Of a DNA stretch of 64,000 nt, positions 8,688-63,996 are shown in pieces (the first letter of the stretch is position 1; each line of letters begins with the position of its first letter). The position numbers were made by a program, and so were the translations under genes. The notes under the pieces were generated by a model that saw only the letters and a list, made by a program, of their open reading frames with translations, was not told the DNA's origin and searched no databases. Source of the DNA: an uncultured archaeon. Lineage in GTDB: Archaea; Asgardarchaeota; Lokiarchaeia; Sigyniarchaeales; SOKP01. The DNA is taken from NCBI GenBank assembly GCA_964508365.1, contig CAZDTP010000010.1, positions 14,336-78,335 on the forward strand. The letters run 5' to 3'.

Positions 8688-9758
8688 ATGGTAAGACTTG
8701 AAAGTCCTCTAAAAACGATATTAAGGCAAAGATTTTATTATCTATTTGAAGTATTGATAATCTTTCTTGGTATTTTTATTTTCATGTTAATTCCTACTCT
8801 TCTGTTGCCATTTTTGATTGATAGCAATTCCGTGATTTTTGAACCTCTTTATTATTTATTAAGAGCAGCTTTTATAGTCGTTACCATACCTTTATTCCTT
8901 TATTTGGCTAATTTTATAATGGAAAAACAGAGAAAAACATTGATATTAGAGGAAGACATTAGTCCTTCAAGAAATTTTCTTAATCTGTTTAAAATAACAA
9001 AAAGTAATTTTAAATTTCAACTCTTATACGGTGTATTATTGCTTTTTTTAATTTTCATACCATTAGATTTCTTTACATATCTCTTCTCACCTGATATGCT
9101 CAATTTTGTATCCGAAGCTCTAGAACCTGCTGGGGAGTTCTCTTTAAATTCTTATTTCAACGAATCTTATTATATTTTTCTTTTATCAATTATTCTTATA
9201 CCTCTTAGTGTTGCTCTTTATGAGGAATCCTTAGTAAGAGGGCTCTTAACCAATAGAGGAAGCGATTATATTAATAGAATGTCTGCTGTAATATTACCAT
9301 CCTTTTTCTTTGGATTAGGACATTTTAGGTATATCTTTTCAAGACCCGTACTAGAATTTCCAATTATCTTTCCTATTATTTGGTTTCTACAAACCTTCCT
9401 TGTAGGCATCATTCTTGCGATGGTAGTATTAAGGAAACATTGGATATTTCCAGCGATTTTTGCACATACTCTAAATAATGTTATCTCCTCTCAATCAATT
9501 TGGAACTATATAAACGGTATTGATTTTTCGTTTATGACCTTCTATATTTACATTCCTTTATTGATAATAGGAATAATACTTTTTATTTGGCAATTTTCTA
9601 GAATTAGAGAGAGTTTAACAATAGGTTGGAAAGAATTTAAAAGTTATTTTGCCCGTGATGAAAATATCGGAGAAAATTCGTTAGAAACTGTTGTTAGAAT
9701 TATGATGGATTTTTTATTTGGACTAATAATTTTTTTAGTTGGAGTAATACTAATATAG
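8688..9758 (+). CDS. CPBP (CAAX/Abi) intramembrane metalloprotease
   Basis: Multiple TM helices; EESLVRG, FGLGH and AHTLNN motifs. Confidence 0.88.
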   Translation: MVRLESPLKTILRQRFYYLFEVLIIFLGIFIFMLIPTLLLPFLIDSNSVIFEPLYYLLRAAFIVVTIPLFLYLANFIMEKQRKTLILEEDISPSRNFLNLFKITKSNFKFQLLYGVLLLFLIFIPLDFFTYLFSPDMLNFVSEALEPAGEFSLNSYFNESYYIFLLSIILIPLSVALYEESLVRGLLTNRGSDYINRMSAVILPSFFFGLGHFRYIFSRPVLEFPIIFPIIWFLQTFLVGIILAMVVLRKHWIFPAIFAHTLNNVISSQSIWNYINGIDFSFMTFYIYIPLLIIGIILFIWQFSRIRESLTIGWKEFKSYFARDENIGENSLETVVRIMMDFLFGLIIFLVGVILI

Positions 9759-10300
9759 TGAGTATTAGAAAAGAAATGGCTAAATTTGGAATTATTTCTG
9801 ACACACATTTTACCATTAATGATAAAAATGAGTTATATTATAAATTATTGAATCAACTAGAAGAAACTTTCAAAGATGTTGATGAAATTATTCATGCTGG
9901 AGATGTTTGTGAATCATTTCTTCTTGACGATATGAAAAACATCGCTCCAGTCCGATGCGTACGAGGAGAGTCAGACAAAATAACGGGACTAGAGAATTTT
10001 ATAAAATTTGAAGTTGGTAAATACTCCCTCGGAATAATACACAAGAAACCTGAAAATACAGGAGCTTTTTTTAAAGAGCATAATATCCATATTCTTATTT
10101 TTGGGCATACCCATCAACCACTTATAAAAGGAACACCTTACAATACGCTTTTAATCAATCCGGGGAGCCCAACTAAACCTATAGCACCACTTCCTAAAAA
10201 AGGATTTGACAAACCCATTGCGAGACCAAGCGTTATTACCCTGAAGATTGATGATGATAATATTCTATCGACTTTTCTGATAAATCTGAATTTAAGATAA
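9758..10300 (+). CDS. YfcE/MJ0936-like metallophosphoesterase
   Basis: ISDTH, IIHAGD, GHTHQP and NPGS motifs; RGESD replaces the usual GNND. Confidence 0.88.
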   Translation: MSIRKEMAKFGIISDTHFTINDKNELYYKLLNQLEETFKDVDEIIHAGDVCESFLLDDMKNIAPVRCVRGESDKITGLENFIKFEVGKYSLGIIHKKPENTGAFFKEHNIHILIFGHTHQPLIKGTPYNTLLINPGSPTKPIAPLPKKGFDKPIARPSVITLKIDDDNILSTFLINLNLR

Positions 10301-10399
10301 AGTAAAATTAAATACTAAATAGTTCATAATATATATACATCTTGTAATAAGTTTTTTTTTATAAGTTGTTTTATAAAAGATTTTAAGGGAGTATTAACT

Positions 10400-10798
10400 G
10401 TGGTTAGCCGACTTGAACTTGTGCTTAAAGAATTAAATGAAAATGGAAATTTTAGAGCGTCATTGTTCTCTACTTCAACAGGATTAGTTTTAGCTTCCCA
10501 AAAATCAGAAAAAGTTGATGATCGGGTTGTTGCTGCTATGAGCTCCTTATTGAGCGATGCAGCATATAAAGCTTCTGAGGAAATGAGCTTGTCCCTTCTT
10601 TCGAGTTTAAAGATAAAATATATTGAGGATTATATTGTATGCAGAAATATTATTATGCCTGATCAAAAAACACAATTTATATTGGCAGTTTTATCCAATA
10701 ATCCTGAATCACATGAAATTGAATCCTATTACGATCAATTACTAGATTGGGCTGTTGATAACGCAACTCCCGATTTAGAAAAACTGTCTTCAATATAA
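10400..10798 (+). CDS. Roadblock/LC7-domain protein
   Basis: 132 aa; S-L-F-S-T-S-T-G-L-V-L-A-S...D-R-V-V-A-A-M-S-S-L-L pattern typical of the roadblock fold. Confidence 0.7.
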   Translation: MVSRLELVLKELNENGNFRASLFSTSTGLVLASQKSEKVDDRVVAAMSSLLSDAAYKASEEMSLSLLSSLKIKYIEDYIVCRNIIMPDQKTQFILAVLSNNPESHEIESYYDQLLDWAVDNATPDLEKLSSI

Positions 10799-10834
10799 AT
10801 AAACTTAATTTTTATTAAAAATCTAGTGGATAAT

Positions 10835-11509
10835 TTAAGTCAATATTGATTCATAAAAGTTTATTACTTCCCTACTAATCGCTTCTTCAAATCCTTGATA
10901 AAAATGATCAGCTCCTTCTATAATCTTGAACTTTTTTGGCTCTGAATAGTAATTATAGTGTTTCATAAAATTATTATAAGGTGCTAATGAATCCATGTCC
11001 CCTTGAATGAATAATTTTGGACTTTTCGATTGAGAAAACTCTTTATATTGGATGCCCATAAAGTCCCAAGGAAAAGAAATTGCACAATATCCGATTATTT
11101 TTTTTGAATAGTTGATAGTAGAACATCCTATAGCAGCACCGTAGGAGTACCCGCATATAAATATTCTATCAAAAAGTAAAGTCTGCGTTAAATGATCAAT
11201 ACAAGCCTTAACATCGCTTAATTCGCCTTTACCACTTGTATGTTTCCCTGTTGAATTACCAACTCCCCTAAAATTGAAGCGCATGCACGATATATCATTG
11301 TTAACGAACGAATTAAAAACACCCGATACAACATTATTATGCATGTCCCCTCCATATTTTCCCTTTCTTGGGATTTAAACCCTAAAAAATTCAGGATGTG
11401 GATGACACATTAATGCAACACAACTAGGTGTTTCTTTTTTTATCTGAAAAACTTCGGCTTCAAGTTTAATTTCATTATTAAGAATAAACAATTTTTCAAC
11501 GCTATGCAT
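10835..11509 (-). CDS. Alpha/beta-fold hydrolase (COG2945-like), split by a 33-nt intron: exon 1 11509-11391, exon 2 11357-10835, 213 aa spliced
   Basis: Exon 1 translates to MHSVEKLFILNNEIKLEAEVFQIKKETPSCVALMCHPHP(E). Exon 2 gives YGGDMHNNVV...RFNFRGVG...GYSYG (nucleophile)...QGDMD...GADHF. The ORF track only sees 10835-11344. Confidence 0.88.
11358..11390 (-). other. Putative BHB-type (tRNA endonuclease) intron in mRNA, 33 nt, with an in-frame UAA
   Basis: Minus strand reads UCCACA-UCCU-GA^A-UUUUUU-A-GGG-UUUAAAU-CCC-AAGAAA-GGGA-AA^A-UAUGGA. This gives a 4-bp central helix UCCU/GGGA, two 3-nt bulges on opposite strands, an intron stem and an exon stem. Splicing yields CCU GA|A UAU GGA = P-E-Y-G. 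Confidence 0.82.
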
Positions 11510-11559
11510 AATTTTAATTAATCTTTAATATATAATAATAATACTATTAAAATTCTTTA

Positions 11560-12420
11560 GTGAAAATGAGTTATAATCGTATTTTAATCAAAGAAAAACT
11601 AAAAAAGTTCTTAATTGAAGACAACTATTTCATCGATATTAGTTCAAACTCCATTCCCAAAGAATCTGCATCTTCAGCAACAATCATAGCCAAAAGTGAT
11701 GGATATTTGTCTGGTTTAGAAGAGCTGGAAATATTATATCAACTCTTAAATGTGAATGTTATCAGTAACAAAGAAGATGGAGATCAAATCCATAAAGGTG
11801 ATATCGTAGCGAAAATAGACGGTAAAACAAGAGATATATTGCTAGGTGAGCGATTAGGTCTAAATCTTATGAGTCACATGAGTGCAATAACTTCTACAAC
11901 TCGAAAATTTGTAAAAATAATTGAAGATTCTGGGAAAAATGTGAAAATAGCTTGTACAAGGAAAACTCTACCAGGGTTAAGATTGTTCGAAAAGAAAGCC
12001 GTAAGCCTGGGTGGAGGAGATACTCACCGTTTTAATTTAGACGATATGGTACTTTTAAAATCAACACATTTAAGATTTTACAAAGGAAACATCGGAAAAC
12101 TTCTTAATGATGTGAGATCTCAAGTTAGTTTTACAAAAAAAATAGAAATTGAAATAGAAAATGTAAACGATGTCCTAATTGCCATTAAAAACAAAGCAGA
12201 TATAATTATGCTGGATAATATGGATCCAGATAAAGCTCAGGACGCTATTAACTTATTAAAACAAGAAAATTTACGTAATCAAGCCATTATAGAAATTTCG
12301 GGGAATATTACTCAAGCAAATATTTTTGACTATCTAATTTCAGAGCCAGATGTAATAAGTACGAGTGTTCTTACACAAAAACCCACTGAATTCGTAGATT
12401 ATTCACTTCGATTTGATTAA
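11560..12420 (+). CDS. nadC: Nicotinate-nucleotide pyrophosphorylase (carboxylating)
   Basis: ERLGLN, TRKTLPGLRLFEKKAV, HRFNL, IEIE, IMLDNM, EISGNI. Confidence 0.93.
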   Translation: MKMSYNRILIKEKLKKFLIEDNYFIDISSNSIPKESASSATIIAKSDGYLSGLEELEILYQLLNVNVISNKEDGDQIHKGDIVAKIDGKTRDILLGERLGLNLMSHMSAITSTTRKFVKIIEDSGKNVKIACTRKTLPGLRLFEKKAVSLGGGDTHRFNLDDMVLLKSTHLRFYKGNIGKLLNDVRSQVSFTKKIEIEIENVNDVLIAIKNKADIIMLDNMDPDKAQDAINLLKQENLRNQAIIEISGNITQANIFDYLISEPDVISTSVLTQKPTEFVDYSLRFD

Positions 12421-12431
12421 AGGTAAAAAAA

Positions 12432-12824
12432 TTAATCTATTATTATTTCGTGGATTGAACTACTCACATCCTTAATTTTTGCGATAGATTGATAAAGATC
12501 TTTAATAAATCCAAATTCTCCTACTACTAAAACCGTTTCGATTTTTTTCTCGGCAATTCTCCAATCACTTATAGCCTTTATTATTGCGTGAAATTTATAA
12601 AATAGCTCAGAAATTTCATCAGCTATAGATTCCTTAACAGGATATACGAGGTTAATTGTCATGATTCTGTATCCTTCTAAATTCTCGAATTTCTCATGAC
12701 TTTCTATAAATTTTAATATTGAATCTCTTAGTGCTTCGCTTTTGGAATTAAATCCGCTCTGTTTTCGAACTTTTTCAAACCTGTCTAGTAAGTCTTCACT
12801 AACTTGGAGAGATATAATTTTCAT
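12432..12824 (-). CDS. NikR/CopG-family ribbon-helix-helix transcriptional regulator with ACT-like C-terminus
   Basis: IISLQVSEDLLDRFEKV...GFNSKSEALRDSI; lacks the His-rich Ni-binding motif of true NikR. Confidence 0.8.
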   Translation of the reverse strand: MKIISLQVSEDLLDRFEKVRKQSGFNSKSEALRDSILKFIESHEKFENLEGYRIMTINLVYPVKESIADEISELFYKFHAIIKAISDWRIAEKKIETVLVVGEFGFIKDLYQSIAKIKDVSSSIHEIIID

Positions 12825-12981
12825 TATATAGAATATAAATATGATTCTTAAATAAGTGTATTAAATTCTCCCTCATAAATTGTTCTTCTCTTAGGAGTTA
12901 TTTGGTAAGTTTAAAATTAATGATTTTTAAAATTACCTCGAAGGAACATATTAAATTGATCAAATTCTTATCAAAGTTATT

Positions 12982-13812
12982 TCACAAAAATTCAGAGATA
13001 TAATTAATACTCTGCTCTAAACCCTCCTTGGCTGAAAGTTCTATGATAAGAGCACCTTTATATCCATAACTTTCAATAATTTCTAAAATATGCTTAAAAT
13101 TAATTTTACCTGAACCTAACTGTGGATGAGTATCTGATTCCGTTGTAAAGTTTTCGACAATATGTACATTTTTAATAATTTTATGATACCTTTCCCAAAG
13201 TAAATTCACATCTCCATTATTAGTATAGAAGTGGCTGGTGTCATATGTGAGGAATAATTCTTTTCTATTAATAGACTCTAAATTTTCTTTAATATTATCC
13301 TGGTCTAACATTATATGTGTATTTTTGGGCATATTTTCAAGACAAATCGATATATCAAGATTTTTTGTCATATCTAATATAATATTAATTGCTCTAGCTA
13401 ATTGGATTCTATTATAATCTCTAAAAGATTCCAACAAATAATTAGCCAAACCTGGATGGATAGTTAATATTTTGGCTTTAAATTCCCTGCAAAATTGAGC
13501 AGTTTCAAGATATGCATCTATTGAGGCTTGAGAGATTCCTTTATTGTGAGAGCACAAGTTAATATCGATAAATGGGCCATGTACTTGCTTTGCCATTGAA
13601 TACGATTTAAAAAGATCAAGATATGCTTGTTTCATCTCACCTATAAACATATCTTGCGGATCAACAACAATTTCTACAACATTAATTCCATGTTCTTCCG
13701 CAGATTTAAAACACTCTTCTGTAGAATGATAAAACATATTAGAAATATTAGTAAATTTATTATCTGACGCATTTTCTATGATATTCCCTAATGAACTAAT
13801 ACCTAATCTCAT
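12982..13812 (-). CDS. Sugar phosphate isomerase/epimerase (AP endonuclease 2 TIM barrel)
   Basis: VHGPF, TIHPG, LENMP, YDTSH, HIVEN, HPQLGSG, IIEL. Confidence 0.85.
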   Translation of the reverse strand: MRLGISSLGNIIENASDNKFTNISNMFYHSTEECFKSAEEHGINVVEIVVDPQDMFIGEMKQAYLDLFKSYSMAKQVHGPFIDINLCSHNKGISQASIDAYLETAQFCREFKAKILTIHPGLANYLLESFRDYNRIQLARAINIILDMTKNLDISICLENMPKNTHIMLDQDNIKENLESINRKELFLTYDTSHFYTNNGDVNLLWERYHKIIKNVHIVENFTTESDTHPQLGSGKINFKHILEIIESYGYKGALIIELSAKEGLEQSINYISEFL

Positions 13813-63895: not shown

Positions 63896-63996
63896 GCACC
63901 TGTAGCCTAGTGGTAAGACGCTGGCCTTGAGTAGATAATACAATCAAGTAAGCCAGTGCGCGTAAGCGCTCGGGGGTTCAAATCCCTCCAGGTGCG
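63896..63996 (+). tRNA. tRNA-Ser(UGA) with a canonical 37/38 intron (19 nt, 63932-63950)
   Basis: Acceptor GCACCUG/CAGGUGC, anticodon stem CUGGC/GCCAG, central helix CUUG/CAAG, long variable arm, GGGGG-UUCAAAU-CCCUC. Confidence 0.93.

Follow-up and report, generated by a model that had tools for sequence, protein, structure and literature searches.

How does an archaeal gene with a stop codon lodged inside its family motif come to encode a whole enzyme? This question is raised by a minus-strand alpha/beta-hydrolase gene in the window, a 64,000-nucleotide (nt) stretch of contig CAZDTP010000010.1 (positions 14,336 to 78,335; assembly GCA_964508365.1) from an uncultured member of the Lokiarchaeia. 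The gene extends from an ATG at 11509–11507 to a TAA stop at 10837–10835 and contains an in-frame TAA at 11377–11375. Its read-through translation is ...CHPHPE[FFRV*IPRKGK]YGGDMHNNVV..., in which the bracketed residues divide the family motif HPHPxxGGxM, and the annotated downstream open reading frame (ORF) begins at an ATG at 11344, 165 nt below the ATG at 11509. A first-pass annotation made from the letters of the sequence had proposed both the 165-nt upstream extension of this ORF and the splitting of the HPHP motif by 33 nt, and both proposals were confirmed. The explanation that best accounts for the locus, to which we assign a probability of roughly 0.88, is that the 33 nt at 11390–11358 constitute a bulge–helix–bulge (BHB) intron that is spliced out of the hydrolase pre-mRNA.

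The position of the insert within the protein is defined by comparison with its homologues. The hydrolase matches the Pfam families Hydrolase_4 (PF12146; 37.9 bits) and Abhydrolase_11 (PF20408; 36.1 bits), both exceeding their cut-offs, and its nearest solved structures, PDB 3trd (E = 1.5e-26) and 2i3d, align over the whole length. The single gap in these two alignments comprises 11 residues and falls exactly on the residues contributed by the insert. The catalytic motifs GYSYG, Asp (GDMD) and GADH are in register with 3trd, and HPHPEYGGDM corresponds to the loop after the third strand of the fold. Judged by the profile match together with the GxSxG elbow, Asp and His, the predicted protein is a member of the HPHPxxGGxM subgroup of alpha/beta hydrolases. 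In public gene calls this locus appears as two entries, a 169-aa 'alpha/beta hydrolase' and a 44-aa fragment, in line with the earlier expectation that genes of this kind would be mis-annotated as truncated.

Read on the minus strand, as are all features of the gene given here, the transcript is predicted to fold into a BHB. Its central helix H would be formed by UCCU of exon 1 (11396–11393), which comprises the last base of the His codon and the Pro codon, and GGGA of the intron (11363–11360), giving 4 base pairs (bp) in this genome, three Watson–Crick and one G–U. Both strands are invariant among the 23 intron-bearing genes that were read at nucleotide level, and they are 100% paired. One three-base bulge lies on each strand of the folded transcript: the 5′ bulge GAA (11392–11390), with a predicted cut after 11391, which is CAA in other species, and the 3′ bulge AAA (11359–11357), with a predicted cut after 11358, which is AAA or AAG in relatives, its third base being the synonymous Gln/Glu wobble position. 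The predicted mini-intron thus extends from the third base of the 5′ bulge to the second base of the 3′ bulge (11390–11358), at the 11-residue gap relative to 3trd and 2i3d. On one side of helix H lies the intron hairpin h′ (11389–11364; UUUUUU-A-GGG, loop UUUAAAU, CCC-AAGAAA), that is, UUUUUU(A)GGG paired with CCCAAGAAA, with the UAA within the loop; a hairpin is formed in all 23 species from differing sequences. On the other side, an exon–exon helix h would pair UCCACA (11402–11397) with UAUGGA (11356–11351), with one C–A mismatch that is fixed by the coding sequence. The positions that the first-pass annotation had assigned to the ATG, UAA, helix, bulges and stems were all reproduced on this reading.

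Under strict criteria (four pairs in H, at least three of them Watson–Crick, at least 5/6 pairs per flanking helix and closing pairs present), a BHB of length 33 at a given position occurs at 2.3e-5 per position on both strands of this genome, and the motif in the hydrolase coincides with the gap defined by its homologues. The cut rule was checked on the tRNA-Thr(CGU) gene of contig C18, where this geometry returned the intron called independently by ARAGORN, i(37,18). Deletion of 11390–11358 in silico, which corresponds to cuts after the second base of each bulge, yielded the intact 213-aa ORF with HPHPEYGGDM that had been anticipated from this rule. The predicted spliced junction joins ...CAUCCUGA to AUAUGGAGG..., that is, CCU GA to A UAU GGA. 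Exon 1 (11509–11391) is 119 nt long, as it is in 19 of the 23 intron-bearing genes read, and ends with the GA of a Glu codon; exon 2 (11357–10835), with 520 coding nt and the stop TAA, begins with the A that completes this codon and continues with YGGDM, and its GYSYG, D and GADH align to 3trd.

We infer that the tRNA-splicing enzymes very probably excise the insert from this mRNA and join the exons. A heteromeric EndA, consisting of a catalytic alpha subunit and a second subunit, would cut after the second base of each bulge, and RtcB would ligate the two exon ends, restoring the family motif and the full-length enzyme; unspliced mRNA would yield only a 44-aa peptide. The genome that holds the window (G000; 4.07 Mb, scored 100% complete) contains two tRNA-intron-endonuclease genes (PF01974), both above cut-off. 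The EndA alpha protein is most like the Aeropyrum pernix catalytic subunit 3p1z_B (E = 1.4e-33), with Tyr, His and Lys aligned and with the Crenarchaea-specific loop region aligned without a gap, and the second EndA paralogue is without the His, as expected of a structural subunit. RtcB is also encoded in the genome (559 bits), on contig C18; the two EndA genes lie at C9:62003–62605 (plus strand) and C1:52034–52639 (minus strand). Asgard EndA has been assigned to the (alpha-beta)2 type with an L1 loop that confers broad specificity (PMC5829648).

The insert recurs among close relatives of this archaeon. The hydrolase gene is present in 39 of 42 species representatives of the genus, broken at this site in 25 and unbroken in 14, and no break at this site was found in any other genus searched in the order or class. 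Twenty-three of the 25 broken genes were read at nucleotide level, 22 of them complete and one (G014) partial because it runs off its contig. The site is constant in 23/23, after the second base of the Gln or Glu codon following HPHP (phase 2), with insert lengths of 33 nt in 16 genes, 31 nt in four (G023, G006, G024 and G035) and 30 nt in three (G013, G022 and G016). The ends of the insert, AUUU... and ...RAAGGGAA, are common to all copies. The in-frame stop differs by species, being TAA, TGA or TAG, and the 31-nt inserts put the downstream exon in another frame; therefore, only removal of the insert restores the ORF. In-silico splicing converted all 22 complete genes into ORFs of 208–225 aa, compared with 211–213 aa in the intronless orthologues, with HPHP(Q/E)(Y/F)GGxM restored in each, and the partial copy was open up to the contig end after the same operation. 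The intronless orthologues read CCN CAA UUU/UAU GGN, which is exactly the predicted junction.

The alignment of these orthologues, which had been suggested as a check on the proposal, revealed within the genus both the presence and absence of the intron and compensatory changes in its stem. The basal intron stem has 4–6 bp in every species and is 89% paired in the 23-sequence alignment, with compensatory changes at alignment pairs 28–47 (CG 9, UA 8, UG 4), 27–48 (UA 19, CG 1, UG 1) and 30–45 (UA 10, AU 2). The number of paired cells, the number of double changes and the covariation score exceeded those of 500/500 shuffles and of all slid controls. The apical intron stems vary yet pair, as GGG/CCC, GGGAU/AUCCC, UUGGA/UCCAG, CUUGA/UCAAG or UAGG/CCUA. 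The Pro codon inside helix H is CCU in 23/23 intron-bearing genes versus 7/12 intronless genes (Fisher p ~0.002, uncorrected for relatedness). Every comparative test available, covering site and phase, lengths, stops, selection, covariation, intronless orthologues and the presence of EndA and RtcB, agrees with the interpretation of the insert as a BHB intron in an mRNA.

A search for RNA runs covering positions 10000–13000 of the window returned none. Several further observations weigh against this interpretation and concern the quality and specificity of the motif. The BHB of G000 is not its minimum-free-energy (MFE) fold (−17.4 versus −18.6 kcal/mol), and the MFE fold of the 76-nt G000 segment is also not the BHB. 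We do not take this as refuting the intron because the two folds share their outer and intron stems and differ by ~1 kcal/mol. In no species does constraining the fold to the BHB cost more than ~1.3 kcal/mol relative to the MFE, and in five species the constrained fold has the energy of the MFE. The weak element is the exon helix next to the 3′ bulge, in which a lone A–U pair, left open by ViennaRNA, is followed in all species by a mismatch fixed by the codon, C–A (or C–U), and then by 2–4 bp. Across species, 72% of the cells of this helix are paired. The motif is therefore nearer to the relaxed HBh′ form than to a perfect hBHBh′. Such a helix fits the relaxed BHB form reported to be accepted by (alpha-beta)2 EndA with the L1 loop (PMC5829648, PMC6379350). 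Two wobble positions of the exon helix also change in a paired manner (12–63, CG 11 and UA 4; 15–60, AU 9, GC 3 and GU 1), but the exon-helix wobble pairs are paired in only 62–71% of intron-bearing versus 50–58% of intronless genes, which is not decisive. Thus, where the first-pass annotation had described a textbook BHB, the geometry stands and the label is slightly too strong, and the outer extension UGUGUC/GACAUG that it had added to the exon stem is not conserved, with 58% of cells paired across species.

A further point on the same side comes from the genome-wide search for BHB motifs whose excision joins ORFs. The motif-only scan returned 15,694 raw hits under the strict criteria. The ORF-joining candidates numbered 211, most of them spurious reading frames in A+T-rich DNA or neighbouring genes. 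When the criteria were relaxed and a codon-usage score was added, 305 candidates were obtained for 3-base bulges versus 306 for a 4-base decoy, and no threshold was enriched; therefore, BHB shape and ORF joining alone are no proof of an intron in this A+T-rich genome. A scan based on the motif alone is unable to count introns here, although the hydrolase intron and a candidate in an AIRS-family gene were among its hits.

The history of the insert bears on a different explanation, in which the insert is removed from the RNA by machinery other than EndA and RtcB or is a mobile DNA mini-element that moves from lineage to lineage and is tolerated. On the maximum-likelihood tree of the spliced proteins, genes with and without the intron are intermingled, and monophyly of the intron-bearing genes is rejected by the approximately unbiased (AU) test (p = 4e-10), a patchy distribution that would suit an element of this kind. 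However, the intron variants group with gene clades and are not common to distant clades, the insert is too short for any coding, and the conserved features are exactly those that EndA recognises. A search of the genome with a pattern derived from the ends of the intron found only one copy, so it is not a repeated element here. We consider this explanation very unlikely. The common intron ends and the variants that track gene clades argue for one old gain followed by several precise losses, and on these grounds the intron is read as old within the genus; re-gain at the same site is a possible alternative to repeated loss. One species (G010) carries two intronless hydrolase copies (L026 and L036; contigs C12 and C72), which fall in different gene-tree clades.

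If the insert instead stayed in the mRNA, it would have to be translated as an 11-residue loop insertion by stop read-through or be skipped by ribosomal bypassing as in T4 gene 60. The insert of G000 is a multiple of three and places a stop-holding hairpin after a potential take-off site. Nevertheless, one suppressor would be insufficient for a stop that is TAA, TGA or TAG depending on the species, and read-through would not accommodate the frame shift caused by the 31-nt inserts in four species; moreover, the extra residues would lie within the conserved HPHPxxGG loop, whereas solved homologues have none there. For bypassing, the take-off and landing codons are unmatched, with CAA or GAA before the insert and AAA or AAG before UAU, and the invariant 4-bp helix and three-base bulges would be left unexplained. 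We judge retention of the insert in the mRNA to be slightly less probable still than removal by other machinery or a mobile element.

Equally improbable is a truly split gene, in which the 169-aa product from the ATG at 11344 is functional, alone or with the 44-aa peptide. This idea has in its favour that the conserved Met of GGxM supplies an ATG just past the insert, and gene callers use that ATG. In the G017 orthologue (L007, contig C70, ~locus position 1605), however, this Met is replaced by Leu (CUG), and the start does not exist. The 169-aa form would also lose the HPHP motif and the N-terminal strands, both of which align to the solved structures, and the tail of the 44-aa peptide varies freely across species. 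Purifying selection also continues to act on exon 1, which is in phase with exon 2 after removal of the insert. The median ratio of nonsynonymous to synonymous substitution rates (dN/dS) was 0.37 for exon 1 and 0.17 for exon 2 in intron-bearing species, 0.22 and 0.22 in the G000 clade only, and 0.32 and 0.20 for the equivalent parts in intronless species. These ratios indicate purifying selection on both exons, just as on the equivalent parts of the gene in the 14 intronless species. The preservation of exon 1 as a coding sequence is sensible only if it is joined to exon 2.

The least probable explanation is a decaying pseudogene with a dead insertion that resembles a BHB by chance, as the single in-frame stop and the gene calls split into 44-aa and 169-aa pieces might suggest, because a single defect, always at the same site and with no further stops or frameshifts, is found in 25 intron-bearing species that differ to 55–87% protein identity, all complete genes are full-length after removal of the insert, both exons have the same dN/dS as their intronless counterparts and the catalytic motifs are kept. 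An assembly artefact was ruled out by the 25 separately assembled genomes, with records from several isolates and assemblies. Neither decay nor artefact, which the first-pass annotation had named as outcomes that would speak against an intron, was thus borne out.

An intron of the BHB type in an mRNA has a precedent in cbf5, which encodes the archaeal dyskerin or pseudouridine synthase and whose pre-mRNA carries a BHB intron in Desulfurococcales and Sulfolobales (Watanabe 2002; Yoshinari 2006; Yokobori 2009, PMC2738675). The cbf5 introns are 16–44 bp long, and no gene other than cbf5 is stated as confirmed (PMC2738675; also PMC6379350). As in cbf5, the hydrolase intron is short, of BHB type and placed within the coding sequence, where it interrupts a motif that is critical for function; the reading frame is preserved in only some of the copies, gain and loss are seen among close relatives, the hosts have a hetero-oligomeric EndA and the genes are mis-annotated as split or frameshifted. 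In contrast to cbf5, the host gene is a small alpha/beta hydrolase and not an RNA-modification enzyme, the phylum is Promethearchaeota (Asgard) and not Thermoproteota, and several such introns appear to be present in this genome. Whereas the splicing of cbf5 was shown by reverse-transcription PCR and in vitro cleavage, that of the hydrolase is inferred. The hydrolase intron thus appears to work like the cbf5 intron but is not a member of the cbf5 family of Crenarchaeota.

Two other systems provide points of comparison. Archaeal and Asgard tRNA introns (bioRxiv 10.64898/2026.10.13.758758; PMC5829648) share with the hydrolase insert the two three-base bulges, the 4-bp helix and the intron hairpin, and the insert falls in the size class found in the tRNA genes of the same genome, with the same enzymes predicted to act; unlike these introns, it resides in an mRNA, whose spliced product must preserve the reading frame. 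The splicing of XBP1/HAC1 mRNA by IRE1 and RtcB is likewise independent of the spliceosome, with a protein endonuclease that cuts mRNA at small stem–loops, an RtcB-type ligation and, in XBP1, a tiny intron of 26 nt whose removal alters the protein made, but the endonuclease and the recognition motif are different and the IRE1 system is a stress-regulated switch (see also PMC13149111). No report of mRNA introns of this type in Asgard protein genes was found in the literature searched. The mechanism proposed here is of a known kind; the gene and the phylum are new.

The predicted intron would extend the range of such mRNA introns beyond Thermoproteota to the closest lineage to eukaryotes, and the 25 intron-bearing and 14 intronless species offer a clean case for the study of how introns are gained, are lost and drift in length in a prokaryote. 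Because gene callers split the hydrolase, the proteomes and pathway reconstructions drawn from metagenome-assembled genomes would be systematically wrong wherever such introns sit. The chances seem to us evenly balanced that the genus routinely interrupts protein genes with ~30-nt BHB mini-introns that are removed by EndA and RtcB and are inherited, resized and precisely lost like eukaryotic introns, with retention as a possible on/off gate on protein output. Such a gate is conceivable because every frame-keeping copy read holds a stop and the 31-nt copies shift the frame. If this is true, endonuclease-based mRNA splicing would be a regular step in how prokaryotes closely related to eukaryotes express their genes.

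Other candidate introns were seen in the same genome. The AIRS-family gene carries a candidate 30-nt mini-intron at L044:1047–1076 (G000 C3:30946–30975, minus strand); the insert forms a strict BHB (helix ACGU/GCGU, bulges AAU and AUC) and contains a TGA, and the Pfam AIRS N-terminal domain spans the break. Asgard tRNA genes are heavily interrupted (bioRxiv 10.64898/2026.10.13.758758), and ARAGORN in intron mode reported just 29 tRNA genes, 17 of them intron-bearing, in this 100%-complete genome. Several of these calls look distorted, and multiple or non-canonical introns probably conceal many other tRNA genes. In tRNA-Lys(UUU) (G000 C27:2819–2950, plus strand), a 30-nt strict BHB intron lies at the non-canonical position ~68 beside a 40-nt intron called by ARAGORN, and this 30-nt intron matches the hydrolase intron in size and shape. 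Within the window, a tRNA-Thr(UGU) at 63896–63996 (G000 C10:78231–78331, plus strand) has a 19-nt intron according to the intron mode of ARAGORN, whereas with default settings no tRNA was reported for the window.

The hydrolase gene is flanked on the side of its 3′ end by a metallophosphoesterase gene (9758–10300, plus strand) and a 132-aa ORF without a Pfam match (10400–10798, plus strand). On the other side lie a divergently oriented quinolinate phosphoribosyltransferase gene of the nadC type (11560–12420, plus strand) and a gene for a NikR-like ribbon–helix–helix regulator (12432–12824, minus strand).
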